Positions 2,989 to 46,506 of a DNA stretch of 64,000 bases are shown piece after piece. The notes under the pieces are model-generated. The model did no database searches, was not told where the DNA came from, and was given only the letters and a program-made list of their open reading frames with translations. Source of the stretch: an uncultured Gammaproteobacteria bacterium (GTDB lineage Bacteria > Patescibacteriota > Patescibacteriia > Magasanikbacterales > UBA922); contig CAZFUL010000003.1 of assembly GCA_964522435.1 (NCBI GenBank), positions 57,542-121,541 of the forward strand. Direction: 5' to 3'. Numbering within the stretch: the first letter of the stretch is position 1; each line of letters begins with the position of its first letter. The translations under genes were made by a program, and so were the position numbers.

Positions 2989-4026
2989 ATGCGATCTGCG
3001 GTATCTTATTTTTTATTTTTTGCTCTATTAAGCAATTTTTTTCTTCCTCAGCTGGTTCGCGCTAATATGACAGGCGGGGGGTTTGCTATTTATGCGGATT
3101 CGTTTTCTATTGTGAGTGATGAATATACAACTGGGGGTAACTTTGGATTATTTGGAACGGCGGGAGAATTTGGTGCGGGCATTATTCAAAGTCCTATTCA
3201 AGGAAGTATTGTTCAGGTAGATGAATATATTGCTCACTCGAATTTAACCCATGAAATAACTATAGGTGATGGAGTTGTTACAACTACCTTTGCTCTTCGC
3301 AATGGTGCAGGATTATTAAATGGCCAACTATTAGATGGTGTCGGGCCGGAGATTGTTATTGATTGGGGTGGAGCAGCATCAACGAATCAAGGACTATTGT
3401 CTGATAGAATTGCTCAGGCAATTAATGCCGAAACGCATAATCTTGCAATATATGCGCAAAGTGATGGGGTAGACAGTGTTTTTCTTACCAACATTCGAAC
3501 AGAGGGGGCTCAAGCCGTTGCTATTGTAGAAAACATTACCGAAGATGCCATGACTTTTTCAGGCATGTCTCAAAATGGGACACGTTCCTTACGTGGTGGG
3601 TTTCAGGCTATGGAATTAGGCGCAGTTTCTCTTACCTTTAATACCACTACGGTTAATTTATCAGATTTAACGCTTCTAAGTGTTGCGAGTTCGTCTATCA
3701 CTGCAACCGTTACGTCAGATGGGGGGTATGTATTAAGCGCTCAAGAAGATGGGAATTTACGTACGGGTATTCATGATATCGATGATGTTATTGGGGGCGC
3801 CGTTGTTGCAGGAACAGAAGGTTATGGGATACGCACGAGTGGTGATGATGGCCAACAAAATGGCGCCGATGTTGCGTTAACGGGGATTGATCTTACGATT
3901 GCGAGTAATATAGGATCTGTCGTTGGAGAAGATACGATCATTGATTTTCGAGCAGCGATCGATCAAGACAGTATTGGCGGAGACTACAGTCATATTGTTA
4001 CCTTTACTATTACTTCATCATTATGA
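2989..4026 (+). CDS. Secreted hypothetical protein (signal peptide; Gly/Thr/Ser-rich beta-type sequence)
   Basis: 345 aa; N-terminal hydrophobic signal MRSAVSYFLFFALLSNFFLPQLVRA; first gene of a 4-gene plus-strand envelope cluster; stop overlaps next start (ATGA). Confidence 0.55.
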   Translation: MRSAVSYFLFFALLSNFFLPQLVRANMTGGGFAIYADSFSIVSDEYTTGGNFGLFGTAGEFGAGIIQSPIQGSIVQVDEYIAHSNLTHEITIGDGVVTTTFALRNGAGLLNGQLLDGVGPEIVIDWGGAASTNQGLLSDRIAQAINAETHNLAIYAQSDGVDSVFLTNIRTEGAQAVAIVENITEDAMTFSGMSQNGTRSLRGGFQAMELGAVSLTFNTTTVNLSDLTLLSVASSSITATVTSDGGYVLSAQEDGNLRTGIHDIDDVIGGAVVAGTEGYGIRTSGDDGQQNGADVALTGIDLTIASNIGSVVGEDTIIDFRAAIDQDSIGGDYSHIVTFTITSSL

Positions 4027-4877
4027 CCTTGCGTAGGATATATTCATTTTTTATAGCAGGAGTATTTCTTTTTGGATTTCCTCAAGCTTTGTTCGCCCTG
4101 ACCCTTGGTCCTTCTAAACAAACGATTGTGGTTGATCAAGGACAAACAGCCACTGCGAACATTTTTGTTCTCAATGATGGAGAGACTCCCCAAACATATA
4201 TTGGAGAAGTAGATGCCTTCGTTGCTTCTGCAGATGGGGTGACCCCGGTGTTTGGTCAGACGGATGAGGCAAAAAAATGGATATCTATTCAACCCGCTAC
4301 CCTTTCTTTGGACCCAGGAGAAAAAGGAATAATGACCTTTTCTATTTCTATTCCTCAAGGAACGGCCCCAGGCGCACATTATCTTGGATTATTTGCGCGG
4401 CAACAAGCGGCGGAAGGACAAGTAGGAATTGCCAGTCGAGCAGGATCGTTGTTGTTTTTATATGTATCTGGAGCTATTGAGGAAGAGTTGCAGCTACAAG
4501 AACTGAGTGTAGAAGGAAACTTTTTTTCAAAAGAACGAAAGCTTTTTGTACAAACAAAAAATTTGGGAAATATTCATATTATTCCTAAAGGAACAGTGAG
4601 TATAAAAAATATGTCGCAGACTTCCTTGTTTCAACGAGAGCTTAATCCTCACACAAAAAGCGTGTATGTGGGGCAGACCTGGAAATTTCAAGAAGATATG
4701 GTATTGCCAAGTGTACGAGCGATAGGAAAAAATAGCGCAGACCTGCAGGTTCACTATGGGGTATCTGAAAAAATAATAACGGGACAGGTATCATTTTGGT
4801 ATATACCGCTGTGGCTTTTTTATACCGTTGGTGCCATGATTATTGCTGTAAGTATCTTCTTTTTTCGCCGTCGATAA
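4023..4877 (+). CDS. Cell-surface protein: signal peptide, beta-rich ectodomain, C-terminal TM anchor with basic tail (DUF916/CscA-like architecture, inference)
   Basis: 284 aa; N-terminal signal (FIAGVFLFGFPQALFA), C-terminal WYIPLWLFYTVGAMIIAVSIFFFRRR; translationally coupled to upstream gene. Confidence 0.55.
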   Translation: MTLRRIYSFFIAGVFLFGFPQALFALTLGPSKQTIVVDQGQTATANIFVLNDGETPQTYIGEVDAFVASADGVTPVFGQTDEAKKWISIQPATLSLDPGEKGIMTFSISIPQGTAPGAHYLGLFARQQAAEGQVGIASRAGSLLFLYVSGAIEEELQLQELSVEGNFFSKERKLFVQTKNLGNIHIIPKGTVSIKNMSQTSLFQRELNPHTKSVYVGQTWKFQEDMVLPSVRAIGKNSADLQVHYGVSEKIITGQVSFWYIPLWLFYTVGAMIIAVSIFFFRRR

Positions 4878-4883
4878 TACGCT

Positions 4884-7442
4884 ATGACTATTCGGAATCA
4901 ACTTGTATTTCTTTATGGCTGCATGACGGCCTGCTTTTTTTTGAGTAGTATTTTATGGTGGGTGAGTGTTGTTCGAGCACAAGATATTACGATAGATGTA
5001 ACGGTTCCCGCCATTTGTGGTAATGGCGTTCAAGAAGGAGCAGAAGAGTGTGATGAGGCTGATTTAAATGATCAAACTTGTGCTAATGAGGGATTCGCTG
5101 GTGGTGGCAATTTAGCCTGTCAGGTAGATTGTACCTTTGACACCAATGATTGTCGTGTTGGTGGTGGGGGTGGGGGCGGCGGAGGTGGTCCACAACTACC
5201 AGATCCTGAGCCGCAACCAGAACCCGAACCTCCGGTCCTACCTAATCCTGTATGTGGAGATGGTATAAAAGAAGGGGCAGAAGGTTGTGATGACGGAAAT
5301 CTTTTAGATACAGATTTTTGTAATTCCCAGTGCCAACCACGAGTCATTGTTTGTGGAAATGCATTAGTAGAAGTAGATGAACAATGTGACGATGGAAATG
5401 TGCAAAATGCAGATGGCTGTAGTAATCAATGTCGTGTTGAAGCACCGCTTGCTATTTGTGGTAATGGACAAATAGAGGCCGCAGAACAATGTGATGATGG
5501 GAATCTGCAAAATGCGGATGGCTGTAGTAATCAATGTACCATCGAGCTCCCGGCACCGATCTGTGGTAATCGTCAGATAGAACAAGGAGAACAATGTGAT
5601 GATGGAAATGCGCAAAACGCGGATGGGTGTAGTGATCAATGCCGGGTTGAAATTCCTGTTATTCCTCCTCAGGTGATTCCTCCTATCATTAACCCCCCAG
5701 TTGATCCTATTGCTGGTGGAGAAAATGGAGATGGCGGCGGGGGAGCGGATAGAGAACGAATAACTCTGGGACAAGTAGTATTTTGGATCGCAAATGGAGC
5801 TTTTGTGGTAACGCCCGATGAGCAACAACAGTTGCGAACAGTACAGGGGGATGCTCTTATTATTGGAATCCATGAGCATAATATTCCTCAAGCCGATGTT
5901 GCGCAAATTATCATTCGTGTGGGAGAAAAACAATTCGCGTTTACCTATTCTGCAACCGATGGTAGGTATTATGTCACTGTTCCTGTATCATCCGGTGTTG
6001 CCAATGCTACCGTAAGCATTACGTACAAAGAAGGAATGGAAGATCGTATCTCGTTTCGTATTCTTGGGGTACCGCTTGGCCGCATAATAGATGAAGAAAA
6101 AAATCCACTCTCTCAAGTGCGGGTTTCTCTTATCAATAATGAAACGCAACAGCTAGTAAATGTTGCCGTGGTTGGAGGGACAAATCCCTCTGTAACCGTT
6201 GCAGATGGGCAATATTATTTTCTTGTGCCTAATGGTCGCTATAGCTTGCGCATAGAAAAAGAAGGATTTCATATACGCAATACCCTCGCTTTTGTTGTGA
6301 ATGATCACATCATTAATCAAGAATATGTGTTAATAAAAAAACAGGAAACGATTTTAGAGGCTTTGGCAGGACTTGATGAGAATGCCCCTATTACTGAACG
6401 AGCAACCGTATTATCGCAAGCAATCGTAAATAATGTTCAAGAACAAAGCGCGTTAATTACTCAACAAATAACAGAACGTCTTGCCCTTGTTAATGACGTT
6501 GCGGATGATCCGCAAGTAGAAGAAACAGTAGAAATATTTGTAGCCCCGAGTGTTGTTGGGGTATCTGCGGCGATTATTGTTCCTTCCCTATGGTCGAGTA
6601 TTTTTCCCTTGTTGCGCTATATATTTTTACAACCACTTTTGTTATTGGGAAAACGTACCCGTCGAGAATGGGGTATTGTATACAACAGTTTAACAAAACT
6701 TCCTTTGGATTTGGCGGTTGTTCGTCTTATTGATGCCGCCACAGGTAAAGTAAAACAATCTCGCGTAACAGACACGCATGGACGATATTTATTTATTACT
6801 GAACCGGGGGAATATACGGTTGAAGTAGCAAAAGCAGGATTTACCTTTCCTTCTCAAATTATTCGTCATGTGCGCAATGATGGAAAATTTGTAGACGTAT
6901 ATCATGGAGAAACAATTCGGGTAGCATCTGATAATGTTACTATTACTCCCAATGTTCCACTTGATCCTGCCGGAGAAGTAAAAACACCCAAGAGAGTTGT
7001 TTGGGAGACACGATTGCGTATCCTGCAACAGACTATCTCGGTTTTTGGTATTCTCTTGGCGCTTATTTCTGTATATATTAGCCCAACGGTCTTTACGATT
7101 GGTTTTTTGATACTCCATATGGCGATGTATATTGGTTTCCGTGCATGGATTCAACCCAAACAGCCCAAAGGCTGGGGTATTGTATATAATGAAATCAATA
7201 AAGAACCAGTTTCTGGTGCGGTGGTACGACTCTTTACAAAAGAATATAATAAATTGGTCGCAACGCAAATAACGGATCGCAAAGGACGCTACGCGTTTTT
7301 AGTTGGTCCAAGTACGTATTATGTCACGTCACAAAAAACTGGATATGACAGAGTACAAACAGGAGAAATTGCTATCGACACCAACGAAGAACAATCGTTT
7401 TTAAAAGAAGATGTTCCTATGTCGCAGCATCCTAAGGAATAA
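4884..7442 (+). CDS. Large membrane/surface protein with five cysteine-rich repeats (CGNGxxExxExCDDGNxxNxDGCSxxC), Gly and Pro-Glu low-complexity linkers, three carboxypeptidase-regulatory-like domains and internal TM helices
   Basis: 852 aa; N-terminal TM; repeats at aa ~45-260 (Myxococcus-type cysteine-rich repeat, by memory); G11 run then PEPQPEPEPP; three GRY(x)F...G(x)Y beta-sandwich motifs each preceded by a hydrophobic helix. Confidence 0.7.
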   Translation: MTIRNQLVFLYGCMTACFFLSSILWWVSVVRAQDITIDVTVPAICGNGVQEGAEECDEADLNDQTCANEGFAGGGNLACQVDCTFDTNDCRVGGGGGGGGGGPQLPDPEPQPEPEPPVLPNPVCGDGIKEGAEGCDDGNLLDTDFCNSQCQPRVIVCGNALVEVDEQCDDGNVQNADGCSNQCRVEAPLAICGNGQIEAAEQCDDGNLQNADGCSNQCTIELPAPICGNRQIEQGEQCDDGNAQNADGCSDQCRVEIPVIPPQVIPPIINPPVDPIAGGENGDGGGGADRERITLGQVVFWIANGAFVVTPDEQQQLRTVQGDALIIGIHEHNIPQADVAQIIIRVGEKQFAFTYSATDGRYYVTVPVSSGVANATVSITYKEGMEDRISFRILGVPLGRIIDEEKNPLSQVRVSLINNETQQLVNVAVVGGTNPSVTVADGQYYFLVPNGRYSLRIEKEGFHIRNTLAFVVNDHIINQEYVLIKKQETILEALAGLDENAPITERATVLSQAIVNNVQEQSALITQQITERLALVNDVADDPQVEETVEIFVAPSVVGVSAAIIVPSLWSSIFPLLRYIFLQPLLLLGKRTRREWGIVYNSLTKLPLDLAVVRLIDAATGKVKQSRVTDTHGRYLFITEPGEYTVEVAKAGFTFPSQIIRHVRNDGKFVDVYHGETIRVASDNVTITPNVPLDPAGEVKTPKRVVWETRLRILQQTISVFGILLALISVYISPTVFTIGFLILHMAMYIGFRAWIQPKQPKGWGIVYNEINKEPVSGAVVRLFTKEYNKLVATQITDRKGRYAFLVGPSTYYVTSQKTGYDRVQTGEIAIDTNEEQSFLKEDVPMSQHPKE
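5352..5666 (+). repeat. Three tandem 105-bp direct repeats (each encoding one Cys-rich module) inside CDS 4884..7442; two degenerate copies upstream (~5010-5100, ~5252-5340)
   Basis: Repeat units start at 5352, 5457, 5562 (tgtggWaat...gatggNtgtagtaatcaatg), about 85-90% identity, in frame. Confidence 0.8.
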
Positions 7443-7463
7443 TAACTTTCAAGAACCACGAAC

Positions 7464-7490
7464 AGCCCCAAATAATTTGGGGTTGTTTTT
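7464..7490 (+). terminator. Rho-independent terminator after the Cys-rich repeat protein gene
   Basis: agCCCCAAATaatTTTGGGGttgttttt hairpin plus T-run 20 nt after stop. Confidence 0.7.
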
Positions 7491-7567
7491 ATATTTTCAT
7501 TTTTTTTCATTATTTTTTTGCTACTCTTCTAACAGAAAGAGTATTCATTTATGTTAAGGAGGAACAT

Positions 7568-10500
7568 ATGCGTTATCGTATTTTTATTGTGGGTATATTA
7601 GTACTTATTGGCGTGTTAGGCATTTTTTATAATAGTTATACACAAGGTTCTGCAATTATTATTTCCGAAATTGGCGCCAGCGAAGCAAGTGGACTTGAGT
7701 GGATAGAACTCTACAATAGGAGTAATGAGGCAATCGATGTGACTGATTGGATTTTTTTTGAAGCAGAGACAAATCATACCCTAACCCTGGTACAGGGAAC
7801 GAGCACGATTCAGGCGAAAGAATTTTTTGTTGTTGCACAAGATAGCACCCAGTTGCTTGAACGAGATGCATTATCCGGGATTACAGTATTTGATAGTGCC
7901 TGGGGGAGCTTAAACGAAAAAGGAGAATCTCTTGCAATAAAAGATCAAATCGGAAATATTGTTGAGCAATTTGTATATATCGCAAGTAGCAATTTTTCCT
8001 TAGAAAAAATAGATCTTGATGCATTTATCTATTCAGCAGAAAATTGGAAGGAACATCCCACTGGGCATTCTTTAGGAAAAGAAAATTATTGGAGTAGTGT
8101 ACCAACAGAAGATTTGCCGCCTGAAAACGAGGGAGAACCAGATGTTCAAGAACATGGGTTTATCCCTATTGTGATAAACGAAGTGGTATCAGATCCGGAG
8201 AGCGGTGGTGAATGGATAGAGTTACTGTCACTTGCTACGACAAGCGTGCAAGTAGCAAACTGGGAGATCTATGATAGTAGTGGAAAGATAGCTACCGTAT
8301 CAAGCACTCTTGAACCAGGATCTTTTTTTGTGGTGGAGCTTGCACGTTCTGTACTAAATAATACTGGTGACACGGTGATATTGCGGAATCATACTGGCAT
8401 AGAGGTGGAGCGTATCGTCTATGGGGTTGCGGATGGTGCCGTTGTTTCTGCGCCCCAAAAAGGCCAAAGTATTGCAAGAACGATGCCGGCTAGTGGCGAG
8501 TTTGTGATCACAACAACTATTACGAAAGGAGAAAAAAATAGTATCGTTTTTCCTGTACCTGAAGAAGGTTCTTCTCCACAAGAACCACCAGCTTCCCCGA
8601 GTAGCACACCAACCCCCACGGGTGTTATTGGTGATATTGTTATTAATGAATTGGTCTCTGATCCTGCTGATGACTCCGAAGAATTTATTGAATTATATAA
8701 TAGTACTCAGGCCACCGTGAGTATTGATGGCTGGTATATAGAAGATGGAAGTGAAGGTAAAACAGTATTGCAGGGGAATATTCCTGGGCAAGGATTTTTT
8801 GTCGTAGAAAAACCAAAAGGAAGTTTAAATAATGCCGGAGATTTAGTGCTGTTGTTTGATGCGTATCGAGATCAAATGGATAGTGTGGCGTATGGGAGTT
8901 GGGACGATGGAAATAAAGCAGATAATGCTCCGGTGGCAAAAGATCCACAATCCTTGTCGCGCAAATCCGATGGCAGTGACACGGATTATGACTATCATGA
9001 TTTTGTCATAACTGATGTGGTAACACCAGGAGAATCAAATCGTATTCATGAGAGCGGTATGCTTGGGCAAGGAATATATACAAAAGATCTTCGTATTTCA
9101 GAACTCTTTCCCAATCCCAAAGGAAGTGATACGGAACAGGAATTTATTGAACTGTTTAATTACGGAGAGATTCCTATTGCCTTACAAGGCTGGCAGATGG
9201 GGGATAACTCTAAAAAAATTTTTCGTTTTACAGACAACCACGAAATTCATCCCTTTTCATATCTCCTGTTGTATCGTTCTGAAACAGGCATTTCTTTGAA
9301 CAATTCTGGTACAGAAGAAGTACATGTATTTGCACCCAATGGAGAAATAATAGATTCGTTGCAATATAGCGGATCAGTAAAAGAGGAGAGTAGCTTTGCT
9401 CGATTTGGGGATACGAGAACTGACTGGACGACTCTTGCGACGCCAGGAAAAGAAAATGTGTTACAAGGACAAGCCGCGGCACCACAGATTGTTTTTCAAT
9501 CAATACCAGATGCCTTTGTCAATGAACCGATTTCTTTTGATGCGTCAGATACTATTGATGAGGATAGTGATAGCTTGTCTTTTTTTTGGGATCTGGGAGA
9601 CACGACAACCAGTAGTAACGAATCATTTATCCACCGCTATACCCAACCCGGAATATATACGATTCAATTAACGGTTCAAGACAGTGAAGCAAATAGTTCA
9701 ACGATGCAACGCATGATACGTATCAGTGATGTTATTGGGGCGACCGAACAGTTTGCTACGTCGTCGTATCATGCCCTGCGGATTACTGAGTTAGTCCCTA
9801 ATCCAGAAGGGACAGACGATACAGAGTTTATTGAATTATTTAATGCAGGATTTGTGGATATAGATATTTCAGATTTGTTTCTTGATGATGAAGATGGTGG
9901 TTCGAAGCCCTATCGCTTTCCTTCTGGTACGAGTATTGCGGCTCAATCATATCGGGTGTTTTCTCGTACTGAGACAAAATTAGCATTAAATAATACCGCA
10001 GACCATGTGCGTTTGTTGAGTAAAGAAAAAGATATATTATTAGATGTGGCATATGATGGAAGTGTGGAAGGGGCTGCATATGTCCTAGATGATGTCGGAA
10101 ATTGGGTATGGTCACAGCGTATTACTCCAGGAGAAATATCGTATGTTGAGGAATTGGATATCATATTATCTTCTACGAAAAAAAATAATAAAGAAAAAAT
10201 AGTTCTGTCCACCACGATTGCGGGGGCAAAACAACAAGATGTTGGAGATATGGTAGATGTGTATGGCGTTGTTGCCGTTGAACCAGGTGTCTTTGGGACG
10301 CAATATTTTTATATGGTTGATGAAGAACAACAAGCCATACAGGTGTATATGTATAAAAAAGATTTTCCCTCACTTTCTATTGGAGATGGCATGTATGTGC
10401 GAGGTGAATTGGCAATGACAAAAGGAGAGTGGAGAATAAAAACAAGTGACAAAGAAGATATTCGTGCACATGATCACCCGAATCTTGAGGATATTATGAC

Positions 10501-10948
10501 AGAAGACATTGCGCATATTAAAGAGGCGCAGATACAATTTGTTCGTATTGCTGGAGAGGTTACAGAAGCAAAGTCTTCGTATTTGTATGTGGATGATGGG
10601 ACGGATGAAATAAAAATATATCTAAAAAAAGGAGCAAACGTTCCTAAAAAGTTTGTCTCTGTGGGAGACCTTGTTGACGTTACGGGTATATTGATTACGA
10701 GTGGAGAAGAATTACAACTCTTACCCAGATCGTCAAAAGATATAATAAAAACCGGCGTTGTAGAAGAATCAATTATTGATAAAGGAATAGGAGATTCAGT
10801 GAACGAGGGAAGTGTTGCACAAACATATTTAACAGCAACTGCTGGAGGTATTAGTTCATTGCTACTCGGCATGTTAGCTAAAGTGCACGGCGCTACTATT
10901 TGGAGGAGAACAACGTACGTGCTAGAAAAAATTATTCGGCGTGCATAA
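7568..10948 (+). CDS. Giant membrane-anchored surface protein: N-terminal TM, five lamin-tail domains (LTD), one PKD domain, two C-terminal OB-fold-like domains, C-terminal hydrophobic segment
   Basis: 1126 aa; strong SD (aggagg) 8 nt upstream; LTD signatures IIISEIGASE...EWIELYN, IVINEVVSDPESGGEWIEL, IVINELVSDPADDSEEFIELYN, LRISELFPNPKGSDTEQEFIELFN, LRITELVPNPEGTDDTEFIELFN; PKD-like FFWDLGDTTTS...YTQPGIYTIQLTVQD; OB-like VDVYGVVAVEPG...QYFYMVDE and IAGEVTEAK...LYVDDGTDEIKIY; no nuclease catalytic motifs recognized. Confidence 0.75.
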   Translation: MRYRIFIVGILVLIGVLGIFYNSYTQGSAIIISEIGASEASGLEWIELYNRSNEAIDVTDWIFFEAETNHTLTLVQGTSTIQAKEFFVVAQDSTQLLERDALSGITVFDSAWGSLNEKGESLAIKDQIGNIVEQFVYIASSNFSLEKIDLDAFIYSAENWKEHPTGHSLGKENYWSSVPTEDLPPENEGEPDVQEHGFIPIVINEVVSDPESGGEWIELLSLATTSVQVANWEIYDSSGKIATVSSTLEPGSFFVVELARSVLNNTGDTVILRNHTGIEVERIVYGVADGAVVSAPQKGQSIARTMPASGEFVITTTITKGEKNSIVFPVPEEGSSPQEPPASPSSTPTPTGVIGDIVINELVSDPADDSEEFIELYNSTQATVSIDGWYIEDGSEGKTVLQGNIPGQGFFVVEKPKGSLNNAGDLVLLFDAYRDQMDSVAYGSWDDGNKADNAPVAKDPQSLSRKSDGSDTDYDYHDFVITDVVTPGESNRIHESGMLGQGIYTKDLRISELFPNPKGSDTEQEFIELFNYGEIPIALQGWQMGDNSKKIFRFTDNHEIHPFSYLLLYRSETGISLNNSGTEEVHVFAPNGEIIDSLQYSGSVKEESSFARFGDTRTDWTTLATPGKENVLQGQAAAPQIVFQSIPDAFVNEPISFDASDTIDEDSDSLSFFWDLGDTTTSSNESFIHRYTQPGIYTIQLTVQDSEANSSTMQRMIRISDVIGATEQFATSSYHALRITELVPNPEGTDDTEFIELFNAGFVDIDISDLFLDDEDGGSKPYRFPSGTSIAAQSYRVFSRTETKLALNNTADHVRLLSKEKDILLDVAYDGSVEGAAYVLDDVGNWVWSQRITPGEISYVEELDIILSSTKKNNKEKIVLSTTIAGAKQQDVGDMVDVYGVVAVEPGVFGTQYFYMVDEEQQAIQVYMYKKDFPSLSIGDGMYVRGELAMTKGEWRIKTSDKEDIRAHDHPNLEDIMTEDIAHIKEAQIQFVRIAGEVTEAKSSYLYVDDGTDEIKIYLKKGANVPKKFVSVGDLVDVTGILITSGEELQLLPRSSKDIIKTGVVEESIIDKGIGDSVNEGSVAQTYLTATAGGISSLLLGMLAKVHGATIWRRTTYVLEKIIRRA

Positions 10949-11012
10949 AAACATAACAGAAACAAAAAAATTTGTTATACTACAAGACATTATATAGTAT
11001 AACAATATATGT

Positions 11013-12707
11013 ATGATTGATTCTGTTTTTGCTCAGCTCAGTATATTACTTGGGATTACGGTCACTATCGCTTGTGTGATGCGTTTTCTCCGACAACCAT
11101 TAATGGTTGGGTATCTCATATCAGGTATTATTGCTGGACCCTTTGTCTTAAATATTTTTCAAGGACATACGGAACTGTTTGATGCCTTAGCAGAGTTAGG
11201 TGTAGTGTTGTTGCTTTTTGTTGTTGGTCTTAGTTTAAATTTTGATCATATCAAAAGAATTGGGAAAGTGTCTTTGATTGCTGGAGTATCCCAAGTATTA
11301 TTTACCTGTATTTTTGGGTTTTTAATGCTCTTTTTCTTTTTAAACATGGGTTTTTCTTCTGCCTTGTATTTAGCCATAGCAATTACTTTTTCAAGTACTA
11401 TTATTATCATTAAGTTATTGACCGATAAAAAAGATACAGAATCGGTATATGGGCGATATACCATTGGTCTCATGATTGTTCAAGATCTTATCGCGTTATT
11501 TATTATTGTTTTATTGACCTCGTTCAGTGAAGGGGTAACGGGCATGGAATTTATCAGTGCTCTTTTATTAAAAGTGATTGTGTTGTCGGCCTTTGTCTTT
11601 TTTATGGGGCGCTACATTATTCCTCGTGTCATGCCCCATGTTGCTTCTTCATCAGAATTCTTATTTTTATTTACCGTTGCGTGGTGTTTTGGTATTGCCA
11701 GTCTGTTATTTTGGCTAGGTTTTTCTGCGGAAGTAGGTGCACTTATTGCTGGTCTCACATTGGGATCTTCTCCGTATCAGGCAGAAATAAGTAGTCGAGT
11801 AAAGCCGTTACGAGATTTTTTTATTGTGTTATTTTTTATCATTTTGGGAAGTGAATTACACTTAGGAAATATTGGTGATTCACTTATCCCCGGAATTGTA
11901 TTATCCCTCTTTATTTTGATTGGAAACCCACTTATTTTTTATTGGGTATTTCGTCGGTTAAAATTTACTCGACGTAATAGTTTTTTAGCAGGGCTTACTG
12001 CAGCACAGGTGAGTGAGTTTGGTTTCGTGTTATTGCTTACTGGAAAAAAATTAGGTCATATACAAGGGACCGAGATGGAAATATTTACTCTTGTTGCCCT
12101 AGGGACGATTATTATCTCTTCCTATCTGATTACCTATAATGAAAAAATATATCATTGGCTTATGCCGGTGTTTACTCTTTTTGGAAAAGATAAGTATCGT
12201 CAAAAAGAAGAAAAAGAAGCAAGTTATGATGTGTGGCTTTTTGGCTATCATCGCTTAGGGTGGAAAATTTATGAGGCCTTACAACAAAAAGGAATGAGCG
12301 TGGGTGTTGTAGATTTTAATCCAACAACAATTCAAAAATTAAAAGATCGGAATATTCCTGCATACTTTGGGGATGCGGGCGATGTAGAATTTTTAGATCA
12401 ATTGCCTCTTCATAAAGCAAAAATGATTATCTCTACTATGCCGGATGTTGATGATCAAGTGACGCTTATAAAGCATGTGAAAGCAAAGAGTGAAAAACCT
12501 CTTTGTGTGGCAACGACCTATCATTTGGATTATATGCACCAGTTATATGGTGCTGGTGCACACTATGTACTTATGCCTCATGTTATTGGAGGAACCTGGT
12601 TTGCAGAACAATTAGAGGGATCAGCGTGGACTAAAAAAACATTTGCGTTATTAAAAAAACAGCAGAAAGAAGAATTACAGATGAGAGAACATTCTGGTAT
12701 AGCCTAA
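11013..12707 (+). CDS. Monovalent cation:proton antiporter (CPA2/Kef-type) with C-terminal RCK/TrkA-N domain
   Basis: 564 aa; ~12 TM helices then Rossmann-like WLFGYHRLGWKIYEALQQKGMSVGVVDFNP...GDAGDVEFL. Confidence 0.8.
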   Translation: MIDSVFAQLSILLGITVTIACVMRFLRQPLMVGYLISGIIAGPFVLNIFQGHTELFDALAELGVVLLLFVVGLSLNFDHIKRIGKVSLIAGVSQVLFTCIFGFLMLFFFLNMGFSSALYLAIAITFSSTIIIIKLLTDKKDTESVYGRYTIGLMIVQDLIALFIIVLLTSFSEGVTGMEFISALLLKVIVLSAFVFFMGRYIIPRVMPHVASSSEFLFLFTVAWCFGIASLLFWLGFSAEVGALIAGLTLGSSPYQAEISSRVKPLRDFFIVLFFIILGSELHLGNIGDSLIPGIVLSLFILIGNPLIFYWVFRRLKFTRRNSFLAGLTAAQVSEFGFVLLLTGKKLGHIQGTEMEIFTLVALGTIIISSYLITYNEKIYHWLMPVFTLFGKDKYRQKEEKEASYDVWLFGYHRLGWKIYEALQQKGMSVGVVDFNPTTIQKLKDRNIPAYFGDAGDVEFLDQLPLHKAKMIISTMPDVDDQVTLIKHVKAKSEKPLCVATTYHLDYMHQLYGAGAHYVLMPHVIGGTWFAEQLEGSAWTKKTFALLKKQQKEELQMREHSGIA

Positions 12708-12722
12708 AAAATAGATAATAAA

Positions 12723-12748
12723 AAGCCCCGATTATATCGGGGCTTTTT
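12723..12748. terminator. Bidirectional rho-independent terminator (variant of the recurrent GC hairpin) between the antiporter gene and the tRNA-Pro end of the minus-strand tRNA operon
   Basis: aaaGCCCCGATtatATCGGGGCttttt, A-run and T-run on either side. Confidence 0.75.
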
Positions 12749-24080: not shown

Positions 24081-26927
24081 ATGGCCCTCACCAGTACTAT
24101 TACGCGTATTGTTAAAAGAAACGGTTCTGTTGTTCCGTTTGAACCGTCTAAAATTAGTGTTGCAATGGAAAAAGCGTTTATTGCCACACGGGGGAGTGTT
24201 GTTCCTGAAGAGCTGCATCGCTTGTTAGTGGCGGTGCTTGGTTTTGCGGAAAATCATTTTGGTGAAAATACGCCAACGGTGGAAGATCTTCAAAATATTG
24301 TTGAAAAAACCCTCATGGAAAACAATTATTTTGATGTGGCAAAACATTATATTATCTATCGCTACGAACACACCAAACAACGCGTAGAAAAAAAACAAGA
24401 AATGGTGAAAAAAATTGAGAGCGGTGGGTTGTATGTCATAAAAAGAAATGGTGATCGGGTGCCATTTTCCATGGAAAAATTGAAAAAAAGTATTCGCTAT
24501 TTTGTTACTGGATTTGAAGACGTGATTAATATCGATGTTATTGCAGAACACTGTCGCTTAGAATTGCATGAAGATATGCCAACAAGAGACATTACTCGTT
24601 CTCTTATTATGATCGTTCGTTCTCTCATAGAGCAAGATCCAGCATATGCTAAAGTAGCGGCACGATTATTACTTGATCAATTAAATAAAGATATTATTGG
24701 CAATGATGTTGTTGATTTTACCCAAAAAGATGCTCAGCTTCGTGCGGCTTTCCCAGAAGCTATTCGTAAAGGGGTTGCTTGTGGTCGCCTTGACCCACGC
24801 TTACTCGCTTTTGATTTATCTGCCCTTGCAAAAGAGTTAGTCTTTGAACGAGACGATGTCCTCGACTACATGGCCATGCAAACTTTAGCTGAACGCTATT
24901 TTGTTCAAGATCCTGTGAGTAAGGCAGTTTTTGAAAATCCTCAATTTTTTTGGATGCGTGTGGCTATGGGCTTGGCCTTGTCTGAAAAAAAACGAGAAGA
25001 ATGGTCAGTTTCGTTTTATCATGTTATGTCTGACATGAAATATACGCCTTCTACCCCAACGTTATTTCATGCGGGAACAACCCATCCTCAAATGAGTTCT
25101 TGCTACTTAAACACGGTAGAAGATTCATTAGATCATATTTTTAAAGTGTTTTCTGACAATGCGCAACTGTCTAAATGGTCTGGGGGTATTGGAACAGATT
25201 GGACAAATTTGCGTGGAACGGGTGCACTTATTCGTGGAACAGGGGTAGCTAGTCAAGGAACCGTCCCATTTTTGAAAATTGCCAATGACACGACCGTTGC
25301 TATTAACCGAAGTGGAAAACGACGTGGAGCAACCTGCGCGTATATGGAATTATGGCACTGGGATGTAGAAGACTTTTTGGAATTACGTAAAAACACTGGA
25401 GACGAACGACGCAGAACTCACGATATGGATACCGCGTTATGGATTCCAGATTTATTTATGGAACGTGTACGCACCAATGGTAAATGGACCTTATTTTCTC
25501 CAGAAGAAACACCAGAATTACATCATGTGTATGGACAAGAATTTGCTCGTCGATATGCAGAGTATGAAGAAAAAGCAGCAGCGGGAGAAATTACTTTATC
25601 AAAAACCTTAGACGCAAAAGATTTGTGGAAAAAGATGGTGACCATGTTATTTGAAACAGGTCATCCATGGATGACCTGGAAAGATCCAAGTAATGTCCGT
25701 TCTCCACAAGATCATGTTGGTGTTGTCCATAACTCTAACTTGTGTACAGAAATTACCTTAAACACCTCAGCAGAAGAAACAGCGGTGTGTAATTTAGGCT
25801 CTGTAAATTTTGCGAGTCATGTGGTTAATGGTGTGTTTGATCACGCTCTCGTACAACAAACCGTTCGTCTTGCGATGCGCATGCTTGATAATGTCATTGA
25901 TTTAAACTTTTACCCAACAAAAGAAGCGTTGTCCTCGAACATGCGGCACCGTCCGGTTGGCTTGGGTATCCTTGGATTTCAAGATGCCTTGTATAAGTTA
26001 GATATTCCTTTTGATAGTGAGGCAGCGGTTCGTTTTGCCGATACCAGTATGGAAATCGTTTCTTACTATGCAATTCTTGGATCATCTGAATTAGCAAAAG
26101 AACGAGGACGCTACCAAAGTTATCGTGGATCAAAATGGGATCGAAATCTCTTTCCTGTTGATACGATTGCGTTATTGGAACAAGAACGAGGAATGATGAT
26201 TAATGTTGATCGGAGTAGTACCATGGATTGGAGTATTGTTCGTGACCATGTTCGCCAATATGGGATGCGTAATTCTAACTGTATGGCTATTGCGCCAACA
26301 GCAACCATATCAACATTAAATGGGACAGTGCCAAGTATTGAACCTATTTACAAAAACATGTATGTAAAATCAAATCAGACAGGAGATTTTATTGTGGTGA
26401 ATGAATATTTAATTGCTGATTTGAAAAAGTTAGGGTTATGGGATTTTGAAATGCTTGGAAAAATTAAATACCATGATGGTTCTATTAAAGAAATTGCAGA
26501 AATTCCAGAAAAGATAAAAACAAAATATAAAGAAGCATTTGATGTTGATCCTCGTTGGGTTATTACGCAAGCCGCGTATCGTGGAAAATGGATTGACCAA
26601 AGTCAATCAGTGAACATTTTTTATGGGGGAAAGAGTGGAAAAGAAATTAGCGAGATATACATGTTCGCGTGGGAAATGGGGTTAAAAACAACCTATTATT
26701 TACGCAGTCTCGGTGCGTCACAAGTTGAAAAATCAACGGTTGATACCAAGCAATATGGATCAACACATGAACGAAAACAATTTTTTGATGCAGCTCCAGC
26801 AGCAGAACCGTTATCTGTTCCTTCTGTTACCCCTGTTATGGTGGCGACAAGTACTCCTGTCGCTGCAGTATCTGCTGACCTAAAATTATGCAAGATTACC
26901 GATCCCAGTTGTGAATCTTGCCAATAA
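24081..26927 (+). CDS. nrdA: Ribonucleoside-diphosphate reductase class Ia alpha subunit with two N-terminal ATP-cone domains
   Basis: 948 aa; ATP-cones VKRNGSVVPFEPSKI and VIKRNGDRVPFSMEKL; catalytic Cys/Asn/Glu region NLCTEI; C-terminal redox Cys pair CESCQ. Confidence 0.9.
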   Translation: MALTSTITRIVKRNGSVVPFEPSKISVAMEKAFIATRGSVVPEELHRLLVAVLGFAENHFGENTPTVEDLQNIVEKTLMENNYFDVAKHYIIYRYEHTKQRVEKKQEMVKKIESGGLYVIKRNGDRVPFSMEKLKKSIRYFVTGFEDVINIDVIAEHCRLELHEDMPTRDITRSLIMIVRSLIEQDPAYAKVAARLLLDQLNKDIIGNDVVDFTQKDAQLRAAFPEAIRKGVACGRLDPRLLAFDLSALAKELVFERDDVLDYMAMQTLAERYFVQDPVSKAVFENPQFFWMRVAMGLALSEKKREEWSVSFYHVMSDMKYTPSTPTLFHAGTTHPQMSSCYLNTVEDSLDHIFKVFSDNAQLSKWSGGIGTDWTNLRGTGALIRGTGVASQGTVPFLKIANDTTVAINRSGKRRGATCAYMELWHWDVEDFLELRKNTGDERRRTHDMDTALWIPDLFMERVRTNGKWTLFSPEETPELHHVYGQEFARRYAEYEEKAAAGEITLSKTLDAKDLWKKMVTMLFETGHPWMTWKDPSNVRSPQDHVGVVHNSNLCTEITLNTSAEETAVCNLGSVNFASHVVNGVFDHALVQQTVRLAMRMLDNVIDLNFYPTKEALSSNMRHRPVGLGILGFQDALYKLDIPFDSEAAVRFADTSMEIVSYYAILGSSELAKERGRYQSYRGSKWDRNLFPVDTIALLEQERGMMINVDRSSTMDWSIVRDHVRQYGMRNSNCMAIAPTATISTLNGTVPSIEPIYKNMYVKSNQTGDFIVVNEYLIADLKKLGLWDFEMLGKIKYHDGSIKEIAEIPEKIKTKYKEAFDVDPRWVITQAAYRGKWIDQSQSVNIFYGGKSGKEISEIYMFAWEMGLKTTYYLRSLGASQVEKSTVDTKQYGSTHERKQFFDAAPAAEPLSVPSVTPVMVATSTPVAAVSADLKLCKITDPSCESCQ

Positions 26928-26945
26928 TTTTCTTTATTCTCCTCT

Positions 26946-27995
26946 TTGATTGTTGTTGCTATGCCTCTCACTAAAACACATGAACGAATTAACATTAATA
27001 ACCGTCGGGTTATTAATGGTGCGGATGCGGATGTTATCCAGCTTTATCCCATGAAGCATACCTTTGCCTGGAATGCCTACAATGTCGGTAATGCCAATCA
27101 TTGGCTTCCAACAGAAATTGCCATGCAAAAAGATATTGAACAATGGCGTTCTCCAACCATTTTAACGGATGATGAACGAAAAGCATTAAAAACCGTCCTT
27201 GGATTTTTTACCACTGCGGATTCTATTGCAGCAAACAATATCGTTATTGCGATGTATCGTCATATCACCAGTCCGGAGTGTCGCATGTACTTATTGCGCC
27301 AAGCGTATGAAGAAGCGATTCATACGCACGCCTATCAATACATTGTTGAATCTTTAGCCTTAGATGAAGGAGAAATTTTTAACATGTATCGAGAAGTAGA
27401 TGCAATTTATAACAAAGCCTCATTTATCTTAAGTTTTAATGAAGGAATCTTTGATCCAAATTTTAAAACAGGAACGTTTGAAAATGACCAAAAATTCTTA
27501 GAAAATATCGCGGTATTTTCATTGATTATGGAAGGTATTTTTTTCTATAGTTCTTTTGCGGTGATGTTTGGATTTCAACGTCAAAGTAAAATGACTGGGA
27601 GTGCTGAACAAATTCAATATATTATGCGTGATGAATCACAGCATTTGAATTTTGGTATTAACCTCATCAACACGATAAAAGAAGAACAACCAGAATTGTG
27701 GACCGAAGCATTTCAACAACGCATTATCAACTTAGTAAAAGAAGCGGCGGTGTTAGAATATACGTTTGCAGAAACGGTATTTCCAAAAGGAATATTTGGC
27801 ATGAATGCTGATGGGTTTAAAAAATATATTGAACACATTGCAGATCGTCGGTTAACTCGTATTGGCTTACCAGAGCAGTTTCATACACCAAATCCATTTC
27901 CTTGGATGAGTGAAGCGATTGACTTATCGAAAGAAAAAAACTTTTTTGAGACACGTGTGACTGAGTATCAAGTGGGTGGAACATTAGATTGGTAA
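26946..27995 (+). CDS. nrdB: Ribonucleoside-diphosphate reductase beta subunit (diiron, tyrosyl radical)
   Basis: 349 aa; EEAIHTHAY (E..H + radical Tyr four residues after His), RDESQHLNFG second iron site. Confidence 0.9.
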   Translation: MIVVAMPLTKTHERININNRRVINGADADVIQLYPMKHTFAWNAYNVGNANHWLPTEIAMQKDIEQWRSPTILTDDERKALKTVLGFFTTADSIAANNIVIAMYRHITSPECRMYLLRQAYEEAIHTHAYQYIVESLALDEGEIFNMYREVDAIYNKASFILSFNEGIFDPNFKTGTFENDQKFLENIAVFSLIMEGIFFYSSFAVMFGFQRQSKMTGSAEQIQYIMRDESQHLNFGINLINTIKEEQPELWTEAFQQRIINLVKEAAVLEYTFAETVFPKGIFGMNADGFKKYIEHIADRRLTRIGLPEQFHTPNPFPWMSEAIDLSKEKNFFETRVTEYQVGGTLDW

Positions 27996-30310: not shown

Positions 30311-31291
30311 ATGAAAGAACCAACCTATCGCAATGCACTTGCTCATGCCTGGCAGATAACAAAAACACAAAAGATGCTGTGGTTTTTTGGTTTTTTTGCT
30401 GCGTGGTTAGGACAAATGGGGCTTATGGATATGGTGGCGCATATGATTGTTACGCAAAAAGAGTTTGCTTGGTATCCAACGGTATTTAGTATAAAAACGC
30501 AGATTCCTGCTATTCTTCAATCGTTTGAAGCCGTAGATTTTTCTTTTGCTGATAAGTTATGGTTTGGTTGGTTAGGTCTATTTTTACTTGGTGTTGGTAT
30601 TGCCTTGATTTGTGTATCAATTGCCTCCCAAGGAGCGCTTATTCACGGAATTTCTCAATCATTTTCTCGGGTAAAAAAACATATTGATGTTTCAACCGCT
30701 TGGCATAGTGGGGTATCCCATTTGGGAAGATTATTTTTTGTCCAATTACTGAAAAAAGGAATTATTTTTGTGATCACCTTCTTTTTAGGCTTAGCCTTGG
30801 TCAATGTTATTGATACAGGAAAACAGGCACAAGAACTTGTTGTATTTTTTGCCTTATTTATTCTGGGAACCTTTGTGGGGGTTGTGGTCTCATTACTGTC
30901 TGTATATGCGGCGGGATATATTGTCATTGAAAAGTATGGTTTTGTTCAGGCAATTCATGAGGCATGGAATTTATTTAAAGCGCATTGGCTTGTATCGTTA
31001 GAAATTGGCGTTATGTTGTTGTTTGTTAACCTGTTAGCAGCAATGCTTATTTTTTGTATTGGACTTTTCTTTTTAGTAGAAATGGGGATACTGTGGGCAG
31101 CTGCTATCAGCATACAGAGTACATTTTTGTGGATGATCAGTGTATTTTTTGGTATAGGGCTGTTGATTGTAAGTATTGCGGCTGTTGGAACCGCCATGAA
31201 TGTATTTACTACCTCAGTATGGACATATCTCTTTGTTCGTATGCATAAAAAAGGAATGGTGAGTCGTATTCTTCATCTGTTAGTAAAGTAA
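30311..31291 (+). CDS. Hypothetical polytopic membrane protein
   Basis: 326 aa, 7-8 hydrophobic helices, no catalytic motif recognized; stop 3 nt before pilB start. Confidence 0.45.
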   Translation: MKEPTYRNALAHAWQITKTQKMLWFFGFFAAWLGQMGLMDMVAHMIVTQKEFAWYPTVFSIKTQIPAILQSFEAVDFSFADKLWFGWLGLFLLGVGIALICVSIASQGALIHGISQSFSRVKKHIDVSTAWHSGVSHLGRLFFVQLLKKGIIFVITFFLGLALVNVIDTGKQAQELVVFFALFILGTFVGVVVSLLSVYAAGYIVIEKYGFVQAIHEAWNLFKAHWLVSLEIGVMLLFVNLLAAMLIFCIGLFFLVEMGILWAAAISIQSTFLWMISVFFGIGLLIVSIAAVGTAMNVFTTSVWTYLFVRMHKKGMVSRILHLLVK

Positions 31292-31294
31292 CCT

Positions 31295-33022
31295 ATGGGA
31301 ACAGGATTTAGTTCGATTGAAGACTTACTTGGTGCATCAAAAAAAACAGGGTCATCAGGAAAAGCACCAGCATATGGTAGTCCAGAAGATCTGTTTCACA
31401 AAAAGATGAAGCAAGTCTCTCAAAAAGAAAAAGAAGTTGAGGTGCAACGATCGGCTGCCCTTGTTTCTGTTCCGTATATTTCGTTAGAACATTTTCCGGT
31501 GAGCCATGAAGCCTTGCGTCAAATTCCAGAACAAGAGGCCCGAGACAAACAAGTGGTCTGTTTTTTTGCTACACCAGAAGAGTTTCGTTTAGGAGCCGTA
31601 TCTCCGACAGATGGGCAGGCAGATGAGCTCTTGCATGTTCTTGAAGAAAAAAATAACTCGCACGGAAAAATATATTCTATTTCTGAAGCCAGTTTGCAGC
31701 ATGTGTTGTTGTTATATAAAACGCTTCCTGTGGTACATGCAATTAGTAAAGACGTTTCGATTCAAGCATCCGAATTAGAGCAAGTACAAGCCTCGGTGAA
31801 TGATTTTTTGCAGTTTCAAGAACAATTACGCAAGAGTACGACAACAGATTTGCTCACCTTTATTATGGGGGCTGCGTTAAAGCTAGAAGCCTCTGATGTG
31901 CATATTGAAGCAGAAGAACAGCGGATTGTGTTGCGTTTTCGTATTGATGGTATTTTGCACGATGCGGCAAGTATTACTTCTGAGCAGTATAAAAAACTGG
32001 TTTCTCGGTTAAAATTACTGTCCTCATTAAAAATCAATATCACGGATAAACCGCAAGATGGACGCTTTACCGTAAAAACAAGTACGGGAGATATTGATAT
32101 TCGTGTTTCTCTTATTCCAACTATTTATGGAGAGAGTATTGTTATGCGTTTGTTGGTACAACGCCAAGAAGCCTATTCTTTTGAAGAGTTGGGTTTACGT
32201 GGGCAACAGCTTGACCGGTTAAAACGAGAGATGGATCGTCCCAATGGTATGATTATTACGACTGGGCCAACAGGGTCGGGGAAGACAACAACGTTATATG
32301 CCATGATGCATCAGTTAAATAAACCAGATGTTAAAATTATTACGCTCGAAGATCCAGTAGAATATAAAATGCCGGGCATTAACCAAAGTCAAATTGATAG
32401 GAGCAGTGATTATACATTTGCAAAAGGATTACGTTCATTATTACGCCAAGATCCTGATATTGCCATGGTGGGAGAAATTCGTGACTTAGAAACAGCTGAC
32501 ATTGCCATTCAGGCAGCATTAACAGGTCATTTAATGCTTTCTACGGTGCATACGAATGACGCTTTTGGGGCCATTGCTCGATTTTTATCTATGGGAGTAC
32601 AACCCTTTTTATTAGCCCCTGCATTAAACTGTGTGATTGGACAGCGCTTAGTTCGACGCTTGCGTGATGATTTGAAGCAACCAACGACCTTAACGGCAAG
32701 TCAACAAGAACGAGTGACGGCACTTATTGAAGATCTACCAGAACCTCTCCGTGCGGAAGTAAAAAATAGACCGCAAGTATTTTATTCTGTTCCAGAAGAA
32801 AATCCTCAAGGTGAGTTAGGATACCAAGGACGCTTAGGTATTTATGAGGTGTTTGTGGTTGATGATGACATTGAAGCTGCGATTAGTGCGGGAAACGTTG
32901 GAGAAGTCGATATTCGTCGTCTTGCAAAGAAACAAGGTACCATTACCATGGCGCAAGACGGTATATTAAAAGCGCTTGATGGCCTTACCTCTGTTGAAGA
33001 AGTCTTTCGTGTGATAGAATAG
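31295..33022 (+). CDS. pilB: Type IV pilus assembly / type II secretion ATPase (GspE/PilB family)
   Basis: 575 aa; N-terminal GspE_N-like region, Walker A TGPTGSGKTTT, Asp box LEDPVEY, Walker B/His box MVGEIRD...TGHLMLSTVHTN. Confidence 0.85.
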   Translation: MGTGFSSIEDLLGASKKTGSSGKAPAYGSPEDLFHKKMKQVSQKEKEVEVQRSAALVSVPYISLEHFPVSHEALRQIPEQEARDKQVVCFFATPEEFRLGAVSPTDGQADELLHVLEEKNNSHGKIYSISEASLQHVLLLYKTLPVVHAISKDVSIQASELEQVQASVNDFLQFQEQLRKSTTTDLLTFIMGAALKLEASDVHIEAEEQRIVLRFRIDGILHDAASITSEQYKKLVSRLKLLSSLKINITDKPQDGRFTVKTSTGDIDIRVSLIPTIYGESIVMRLLVQRQEAYSFEELGLRGQQLDRLKREMDRPNGMIITTGPTGSGKTTTLYAMMHQLNKPDVKIITLEDPVEYKMPGINQSQIDRSSDYTFAKGLRSLLRQDPDIAMVGEIRDLETADIAIQAALTGHLMLSTVHTNDAFGAIARFLSMGVQPFLLAPALNCVIGQRLVRRLRDDLKQPTTLTASQQERVTALIEDLPEPLRAEVKNRPQVFYSVPEENPQGELGYQGRLGIYEVFVVDDDIEAAISAGNVGEVDIRRLAKKQGTITMAQDGILKALDGLTSVEEVFRVIE

Positions 33023-33050
33023 TATCAGTATTTTTTAATTTGCCTGTTAT

Positions 33051-44559: not shown

Positions 44560-45141
44560 CTATTGGCGTATCTGTGTGTTGACGATCTGCCACAGGTGTT
44601 CATGAATGCTGTCGATTGATTGATTCGCGTCTATTGGCAGCCAGCCACGTTCTTGCGCCAGTTGTTTATGTGCCTCACGGACGACCGTCATAAGCGCATC
44701 ATTGGTTTCATGTTTATGGCCTTGTTCTGTTGCTTCGGTAAATCGTTCTCCATCAAACAAAAAAGCAAGATCTTCTTGTAATAAGTGCGCATTAATGGTT
44801 TCGAGGTATGGTTTATCAACCCCTGCACCAATTCCCCAGGCAATGCCTGTTCCGGTATAATCTTCTGCAACAATATGTATTCCCTTTGCCAAGAATTGTT
44901 TGAGTGTTTCTTCGTATTGGGTTCTGTTTAACGCGTAAATTGTTTGACCTTCTCTTGCAGAGAGGTTGAAGGGGTTACCTTGTCGTAAATACGCATTGAG
45001 CATTGTGCCAGAGGGATGAATATCATAAATAGGGTATTTAAGATATTGTGCAGGATAGCCTTCTTTATTCAAGCGCTCTACCAATTTTTTTGCTTGAGTG
45101 GATTTTCCCAGGTTGTTGATACCGTAGAGGACAATGAACAT
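44560..45141 (-). CDS. tmk: Thymidylate kinase-like P-loop kinase (last gene of thyA-folA-tmk unit)
   Basis: 193 aa; P-loop IVLYGINNLGKST, EDY...GIAWGIGAG resembles the Tmk DRY/LID region; operon context with thyA and folA. Confidence 0.5.
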   Translation of the reverse strand: MFIVLYGINNLGKSTQAKKLVERLNKEGYPAQYLKYPIYDIHPSGTMLNAYLRQGNPFNLSAREGQTIYALNRTQYEETLKQFLAKGIHIVAEDYTGTGIAWGIGAGVDKPYLETINAHLLQEDLAFLFDGERFTEATEQGHKHETNDALMTVVREAHKQLAQERGWLPIDANQSIDSIHEHLWQIVNTQIRQ

Positions 45142-45149
45142 ACAAAATA

Positions 45150-46495: not shown

Positions 46496-46506
46496 ACAAT
46501 TAACGC

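Follow-up and report, generated by a model that had tools for sequence, protein, structure and literature searches.

The 64-kb stretch of DNA analysed here (contig CAZFUL010000003.1, positions 57,542 to 121,541; hereafter the window) is a chromosome segment of ∼40% GC, typical of Patescibacteria (Candidate Phyla Radiation, CPR). Besides housekeeping and tRNA genes, it contains a nucleotide-salvage block, a gene for a cysteine-rich DUF4215 envelope protein and an open reading frame (ORF) for an 1126-aa protein that combines five lamin-tail domains (LTDs), a PKD domain and two OB folds. This gene, which we call the LTD-OB gene, lies exactly where it had been placed by an initial annotation made from the letters alone, and the public collection contains an identical protein (P0001). 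All positions follow the window numbering, and those of the LTD-OB gene refer to the + strand unless stated otherwise.

Domain architecture of the LTD-OB protein

The gene and the parts of its product are the following.

7568..10948, + strand: LTD-OB gene, complete ORF with an ATG start, 1126 aa, stop codon included
7568..7642, + strand: predicted signal peptide or signal anchor (aa 1-25), MRYR followed by a 17-residue hydrophobic helix
7643..8101, + strand: LTD1 (aa 26-178), Pfam 50.2 bits, a confident all-beta domain in the model, 38% mean identity across orthologues
8159..8563, + strand: LTD2 (aa 198-332), Pfam 51.7 bits, paralogue of LTD3 (39% identical)
8612..9052, + strand: LTD3 (aa 349-495), Pfam 58.8 bits, part of the family core
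9077..9472, + strand: LTD4 (aa 504-635), Pfam 61.9 bits, paralogue of LTD5, missing from the minimal helix-hairpin-helix (HhH) variants
9476..9733, + strand: PKD domain (aa 637-722), PKD_4 match at aa 637-711 (E=4e-17, 62.4 bits)
9761..10162, + strand: LTD5 (aa 732-865), Pfam 52.1 bits, 47% identity, part of the family core, conserved motif DDE(D/E)GGS
10193..10483, + strand: OB fold 1 (OB1, aa 876-972), conserved motifs PGV.G.QYFY and QVYMYKKDFP
10520..10762, + strand: OB fold 2 (OB2, aa 985-1065), of the PF01336 / DUF5689-C type
10763..10945, + strand: C-terminal helix (aa 1066-1126), a poorly conserved stalk, (E)KYLTATAGG, a hydrophobic segment (aa 1085-1105) and a basic tail (+4)

When the whole protein was compared with Pfam, it matched the LTD family (PF00932) in five stretches (aa 26-138, 201-286, 354-443, 505-601 and 731-823) with a total of 246 bits (E=5e-74). 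All five LTDs individually pass the gathering score when scanned as separate pieces (50-62 bits vs 34.3). The signature by which the initial annotation had recognized them, an INE between hydrophobic residues and a later N..GD, recurs with some variation in each of them (ISE, INE or ITE; NNxGD, NEKGE or NNTAD). They are old paralogues, 29-39% mutually identical, with LTD2 and LTD3, and LTD4 and LTD5, as the closest pairs, and each resembles its own orthologues more than the neighbouring LTDs. The PKD domain (PF18911/PF00801) matches collagenase PKD structures with a TM-score of 0.88-0.90 (normalised to the target).

OB2 matches PF01336 over aa 992-1052 (33.7 bits vs a cut-off of 27), and five of its residues (E1014, G1040, P1053, R1054 and D1058) are invariant in an alignment of 73 orthologues. 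OB1 alone falls under the Pfam threshold, and its OB fold was confirmed by structure; Y915, Y927, F933, R956 and K958 are conserved in this domain. In structure comparisons, both barrels matched OB folds, the best structural neighbours being Ten1, RPA, Stn1, the anticodon domains of aminoacyl-tRNA synthetases, the PolC OB, POT1 and HIN-200. Both thus belong to the class of OB folds that bind nucleic acids.

The full-length model (pLDDT 87.1, pTM 0.32) is a chain of independent beta domains, with low-confidence linkers at aa 179-197, 333-348, 496-503, 723-731, 866-875 and 1073-1087. Helices longer than five residues occur only at aa 2-21 and 1066-1125. The Foldseek neighbours of the full model were adhesins, S-layer proteins and PKD modules. 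Sequence searches of the PDB, with the single sequence and with a profile, returned PKD matches only and none for the LTDs or OB folds. The succession of five LTDs, a PKD domain, two OB folds and a C-terminal anchor proposed by the initial annotation is fully supported by Pfam, fold comparison and the model.

The protein contains no nuclease domain, also in agreement with that annotation, which had seen neither EEP nor SNase motifs. The five LTDs, the PKD domain, the two OB folds, six linkers of 8-19 aa and the two terminal helices account for 1126 of the 1126 residues; since every residue is assigned, there is no space for an EEP (∼250 aa) or SNase (∼140 aa) domain. Searches of Pfam, NCBIfam and PDB sequences (single and profile), and Foldseek with the full model, gave no nuclease match, the EEP catalytic domain included, and the model has no alpha/beta domain. 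None of the His or Cys positions is invariant or at least 90% conserved in the 73-orthologue alignment, and the window protein has no Cys at all. No 5'-nucleotidase domain was found in it, and neither the protein nor the whole 64-kb window contains HhH (PF12836/PF00633) or SNase sequence; the SNase segment of a relative that carries one (P0206, see later in the text) has no match anywhere in the window.

Both ends of the protein are hydrophobic. The N-terminal segment (Kyte-Doolittle 2.38) forms the helix at aa 2-21 of the model, the orthologues have the same n/h/c layout, and signal cleavage probably takes place close to TQG/S. At the other end, the orthologues share a near-invariant (E)KYLTATAGG(L/I)T..L.GL.AK followed by a basic tail, and the hydrophobicity of the anchor segment is moderate (Kyte-Doolittle 1.42 over 19 residues). 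KYLTATAGG occurs once in the window, and all 44 of its occurrences in 1.26 Mb of related loci are the end of an LTD-OB gene. The tail, with its GG-containing hydrophobic helix and basic residues, resembles a signal of the LPXTG or GlyGly-CTERM kind, and was rejected as a general sorting signal. The window protein contains no LPXTG, no NCBIfam sorting-domain model, GlyGly-CTERM included, matches six family tails, and no rhomboid gene was seen among the scanned window proteins. In Falkowbacteria-type relatives, KYLLIIAGG opens an ordinary transmembrane segment that is followed by a short basic tail. Because no sorting model matches, the motif is confined to this gene and the Falkowbacteria-type tail is an ordinary transmembrane segment, the C-terminal helix is best read as a predicted family-specific transmembrane anchor rich in small residues. 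The family gene of the Falkowbacteria-type loci L060-L083 has a different conserved tail, QVLGE..EW..RDKKLELFKYLLIIAGG, with a transmembrane segment.

The family and its HhH and SNase variants

The window protein shares 33-47% identity with more than 100 full-length orthologues. Those that have a name are called 'lamin tail domain-containing protein' or 'PKD domain-containing protein' and are assigned to Candidatus Magasanikbacteria or Patescibacteria. Some bear the automatic JGI name 'DNA/RNA endonuclease YhcR with UshA esterase domain', which is due to the OB match alone. Relatives of the C-terminal module are found in at least 336 GTDB species (one genome per species), Falkowbacteria and 'Parcubacteria' included, and phmmer with the OB tandem gave 1824 matches at E<=1e-3, 154 of them at E<=1e-30, among 1.84 billion representatives. 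Conservation is strongest in LTD3, which has a mean identity of 55% and at least 80% conservation in 42% of its columns and so exceeds the OB folds; LTD5, OB1, OB2 and the hydrophobic helix come next. The variable parts are LTD1 (of all LTD types the least conserved), LTD2, the PKD domain and all linkers. The window protein has the family pattern of an LTD3-type and an LTD5-type domain, tandem OB folds, a hydrophobic helix opened by KYL..(A/T)GG, and a basic tail.

To describe the domains that accompany the OB tandem, 54 diverse representatives of its homologues were scanned against Pfam. PF01336 was found in 53 of them, LTD in 45, DUF5689 in 27, PKD in 17, the ComEA-type HHH_3 in two and SNase in one. 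Among 252 OB-tandem homologues sampled, an N-terminal HHH_3 is present in seven and SNase in two. With SP for signal peptide and TM for transmembrane segment, the seven HhH forms are SP-HHH_3-LTD(s)-PKD-LTD-OB-OB-TM (P0164, P0157 and P0184), SP-HHH_3-LTD-LTD-OB-OB-TM (P0160, P0145 and P0194) and P0229, which carries both domains (SP-HHH_3-LTD-SNase-LTD-PKD-LTD-OB-OB-TM). The other SNase form is P0206 (SP-LTD-SNase-LTD-OB(x4)-TM). HhH, a DNA-binding domain, and SNase, a DNA-cutting one, are the only non-structural domains fused to the family core in this sample.

The HhH variant P0160 can be aligned with the window protein in two regions, LTD3 (aa 354-492) and an unbroken stretch from LTD5 through both OB folds to the KYLTATA tail (aa 740-1125), which defines the family core as LTD3, LTD5, OB, OB and anchor. 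Judged from these alignments, family members differ in their N-terminal module, which is either LTD1-LTD2 or HhH, and in whether LTD4 and PKD are inserted. The gene of P0160 also occupies the genomic slot of the window gene: those of AsnS and EF-P lie upstream of it and a Kef-like gene 80 nt downstream, and two further HhH forms with a Kef-like gene directly downstream are found at the GTDB loci L044 and L065. Among the best 120 relatives of P0160, 33 combine PF12836 with LTD, nearly all of them also with PF01336, and some are named 'competence ComEA-like helix-hairpin-helix protein' by JGI. Since the variants share core and genomic position, the window copy can be regarded as an HhH-less, nuclease-less and LTD-expanded form of a surface DNA-handling scaffold.

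A literature search found no published description of a Patescibacteria LTD-OB anchor family. On lamin tail domains together with Patescibacteria/CPR or ComEA, it gave only a passing mention in Roizmanbacteria, of a 'secreted cysteine-rich protein' near a 'lamin tail domain protein' (PMC6509639). A widespread CPR family of LTD-OB proteins, in which HhH, SNase and LTD heads are exchanged on a conserved core, appears to be previously undescribed.

Two observations were made on the wider set of sequences. Many metagenome-assembled genome records in GTDB/ENA (L014, L023, L028-L030, L035, L038 and others) are titled 'uncultured Gammaproteobacteria bacterium'; these titles look like default or wrong labels, as the gene and its neighbours are clearly patescibacterial. 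Several proteins, namely P0125 (1511 aa), P0128 (1411 aa), P0189 (1448 aa), P0121 and P0133, contain several OB-tandem modules, with 5-6 matched stretches. No LTD match was obtained for P0125, P0121 and P0133, that of P0189 is sub-threshold, and several of the multi-OB proteins show weak matches to DUF4131 (the ComEC N-terminal OB), BOF and RMI2. An 'OB array' of this kind appears to be an architecture of its own.

Gene neighbourhood and other contents of the window

Features around the LTD-OB gene are listed below.

7460..7488, + strand: terminator-like hairpin (13-bp stem and T run) that ends the upstream envelope-protein cluster, from a hairpin scan and the sequence
7556..7562, + strand: Shine-Dalgarno-like AAGGAGG, 5 nt ahead of the ATG, read from the sequence
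10953-10981: promoter-like site ATAACA-17-TATACT with TG, within the 64-nt gap between the LTD-OB gene and the antiporter gene
11013..12707, + strand: Kef-like cation/proton antiporter gene (Pfam Na_H_Exchanger and TrkA_N), 64 nt downstream of the LTD-OB gene with no terminator between
12720..12748, - strand: terminator-like hairpin (13-bp stem) after the antiporter gene, identical when read on either strand

The LTD-OB gene appears to begin a new transcription unit, because the first hairpin terminates the preceding cluster, and the two hairpins that flank the LTD-OB and antiporter genes suggest a two-gene unit. We surveyed the neighbourhoods of 82 related loci. A Kef-like gene lies directly downstream on the same strand in 41 of them, the next neighbour cluster reaching 19, and among the Magasanik-type loci whose downstream sequence extends over 2.5 kb or more it follows within 3 kb in 27 out of 36, mostly after gaps of 25-700 nt. 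It is the only strongly conserved neighbour, and the pairing is also retained in an HhH variant (L086). The Falkowbacteria-type relatives carry an FtsK-like gene downstream instead (14/15, with Kef in 0/15), so the adjacency of the LTD-OB and Kef-like genes may be lineage synteny. Genes for ComM, LspA and DksA-like proteins occur near 12-14 related loci in varying position and orientation. In the Falkowbacteria-type loci, a metallo-beta-lactamase-fold hydrolase and a 193-aa protein come after the FtsK/SpoIIIE-like gene, 3-8 kb downstream.

The initial annotation had raised the possibility that the protein works with the type IV pilus components of the window, to which gene order gives no support. 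The pilB gene (31295-33022) lies 20 kb from the LTD-OB gene, with housekeeping genes and tRNAs between, and a pilB homologue is present within 10 kb in only 1 of the 82 related loci. No ComEC was seen, and no comEC-like neighbour is conserved, across these 82 neighbourhoods, which thus show no conserved linkage to comEC or pil genes, and synteny with pilus or competence genes was rejected. The PilB-type ATPase is flanked by ORFs of 326 and 380 aa without a Pfam match even at E<=0.01 (30311-34193). No PilC or prepilin family was detected in scans of the window ORFs of at least 120 aa; prepilins would be shorter than 120 aa.

Just upstream of the LTD-OB gene, a co-directional cluster (2989-7442) encodes three exported or membrane proteins. 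Its first two ORFs, of 345 aa and of 284 aa with a C-terminal transmembrane segment, overlap by 4 nt and have no Pfam match. The third product (852 aa) contains several DUF4215 cysteine-rich repeats (four Pfam stretches), a G10 run, a PEPEP linker, three CarboxypepD_reg domains and several transmembrane segments. Elsewhere in the window, genes for nucleotide salvage and deoxynucleotide synthesis encode thymidylate kinase, dihydrofolate reductase, thymidylate synthase, dUTPase, a P-loop kinase and dCMP deaminase (44560-50353), and a 709-aa ORF without a Pfam match lies within this block (46507-48639). The large and small subunits of a class I ribonucleotide reductase are encoded at 24081-27995. 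A 307-aa protein (52413-53339), beside a PGA_cap protein, has a DUF6970 match and a Kazal-type serine-protease-inhibitor domain, which is unusual in bacteria.

A putative surface receptor for DNA and its alternatives

Mechanistically, the window protein is not exotic. It would work most like the non-catalytic half of the extracellular nucleases ExeM, Xds and NucH and like ComEA, and is a member of neither group. With the former it shares a predicted signal peptide, an N-terminal LTD, an OB region of the YhcR type, a predicted association with the cell envelope, and, at the C-terminus, a putative hydrophobic anchor that contains Gly-Gly and ends in basic residues. However, it belongs to a CPR organism and lacks the EEP catalytic domain; it has five LTDs and a PKD domain where these nucleases have one LTD; its OB tandem is C-terminal and membrane-proximal, and its tail falls outside the GlyGly-CTERM model. 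Canonical ComEA is not known to contain LTD, PKD or OB modules. Like ComEA, the window protein is predicted to be membrane-anchored and extracellular, and positional orthologues of its gene carry HHH_3. Unlike ComEA, it has no HhH, its anchor is C-terminal rather than N-terminal, which gives the opposite orientation, and no linkage of its gene family to comEC or pil genes was found in the 82 related loci.

A cell-surface, extracellular OB fold of the YhcR/PF01336 type is also a feature of SWAN, SsnA, SpnA and, for the OB part only, YhcR of B. subtilis, although these proteins carry SNase, EEP or 5'-nucleotidase domains and LPXTG, neither of which is found in the window protein. OB folds of this type have been described in surface-attached nucleases of Firmicutes (PMC4118848). 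In Ca. Izemoplasmatales, which forage for DNA, 'DNA-degradation loci' encode a 1,049-aa protein with LTD, nucleic-acid-binding and nuclease parts (PMC8289736). That protein is likewise large and combines lamin-tail with nucleic-acid-binding domains, but it has a nuclease domain and its gene adjoins those of nucleases and nucleoside transporters, whereas the window protein has neither feature. The general census of Mans et al. (2004) generically notes secreted proteins with LTDs alone, with several LTDs or with LTD and OB domains, and assigns no function to them; the literature search gave no paper on the CPR family, its core, its anchor or the HhH and SNase variants.

We lean towards the view that the window protein is an exported, membrane-held, putative DNA receptor or tether that would bind extracellular DNA without cutting it. 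Several lines of evidence point in this direction. The OB type is the one needed for activity in extracellular nucleases: in ExeM of Shewanella oneidensis and Xds of Vibrio cholerae, the OB region is required whereas the LTD is dispensable or nearly so (PMC6085458; PMC6746945). Within the sample, no functional domains other than HhH and SNase are fused to the core, the HhH forms are orthologous to the window gene by position, and conservation of the protein is highest in the core (LTD3, LTD5, OB1, OB2 and the transmembrane segment). What is known of the phylum also fits, since ComEC and type IV pili are widespread in Patescibacteria and ComEA is present in some genomes only (PMC13293708; PMC10633639). 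Of the earlier proposal of a DNA- or polymer-binding scaffold that possibly cooperates with the pilus, the surface DNA scaffold is strengthened, though indirectly, by the HhH and SNase fusions on the same core and in the same position, and the cooperation is not.

According to this model, the Sec signal would export the N-terminus and the protein would behave as a type-I-like surface protein of a Magasanikbacteria-related cell, with the C-terminal helix anchoring it in the membrane and the short basic tail in the cytoplasm. The tandem OB module would then adjoin the bilayer, and a string of beta-sandwiches of ∼900 residues (LTD5, PKD, LTD4, LTD3, LTD2 and LTD1) would extend outward. Capture of extracellular DNA would fall to the OB tandem, perhaps aided by the conserved LTD3 and LTD5, and the captured DNA may be held for separately encoded uptake of the ComEC type or for secreted nucleases in nucleotide salvage.

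Some of our results weigh against a DNA receptor. The predicted ectodomain is very acidic (net charge -102, isoelectric point 4.28), as is the OB tandem (isoelectric point 4.7), and the net charge of each LTD lies between -7 and -20. A net-charge test for a basic DNA-binding surface was therefore negative, all domains being acidic. In addition, the best structural matches of the OB folds include OB folds that work through protein contacts.

A possible, but in our opinion rather unlikely, alternative is a surface adhesin, spacer or S-layer-like envelope protein, in which the LTDs and PKD domain would build a stalk or lattice, the ligand of the OB tandem would be something other than nucleic acid (a cell-wall polymer, an oligosaccharide, or a protein of a host or partner), and the HhH and SNase fusions would be lineage-specific add-ons. 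Against this, the OB tandem is equally conserved in HhH-less and HhH-bearing forms and belongs by sequence to PF01336, the OB type of extracellular nucleases, and all non-structural domains fused to the core in the sample bind or cut DNA. If the protein is an adhesin instead, it is still among the largest conserved envelope proteins of the lineage.

It is quite improbable that the protein serves as an extracellular sensor or accessory subunit of the downstream Kef-like antiporter, with the TATAGG..S...G transmembrane segment packed against the transporter and the ligand modulating ion flux. The frequent pairing of the two genes, in HhH variants as well, argues for it, as do the short gap without a terminator, the hairpins that bound the pair, and a transmembrane motif that is family-specific and nearly invariant. 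However, the Falkowbacteria-type relatives have a different tail and the FtsK-like gene in place of Kef, so that the pairing may reflect lineage synteny, and a promoter-like site lies inside the 64-nt gap; we know of no precedent for a sensor or accessory subunit of the LTD-OB type. Least credible, to the point of being dismissed, is an ordinary nuclease of the ExeM/YhcR type whose catalytic domain has diverged past recognition. Two relatives carry SNase and some orthologues are named YhcR endonuclease by JGI, but that name is owed to the OB match, and the SNase segment of P0206 is unmatched in the window. A cryptic nuclease was rejected, given that no search of domains, sequences or folds gave a nuclease match, that no stretch longer than ∼20 aa is unassigned and none is alpha/beta, and that no His is conserved.

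Returning to the putative DNA receptor, a further step, which we put forward as doubtful and speculative, would be to see the family as the Magasanikbacteria/Falkowbacteria counterpart of ComEA, a C-terminally anchored tandem-OB DNA receptor in which, in the majority form, extra LTDs replace the HhH, and which is perhaps coupled to Kef. If so, bacterial LTDs would themselves be modules that capture DNA or polyanions, and a function would be given to a domain that has been without one since 2004. The minimal HhH variants, which define the core of LTD3, LTD5, OB, OB and anchor, constitute a natural experiment on the role of bacterial LTDs. The biosynthetic capacity of Patescibacteria is very limited, and a dependence on external DNA and nucleotides is assumed for them. 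Because its N-terminal module swaps between a ComEA-type HhH, SNase and extra LTDs, the LTD-OB family is a concrete candidate for the missing DNA-capture step in these bacteria.

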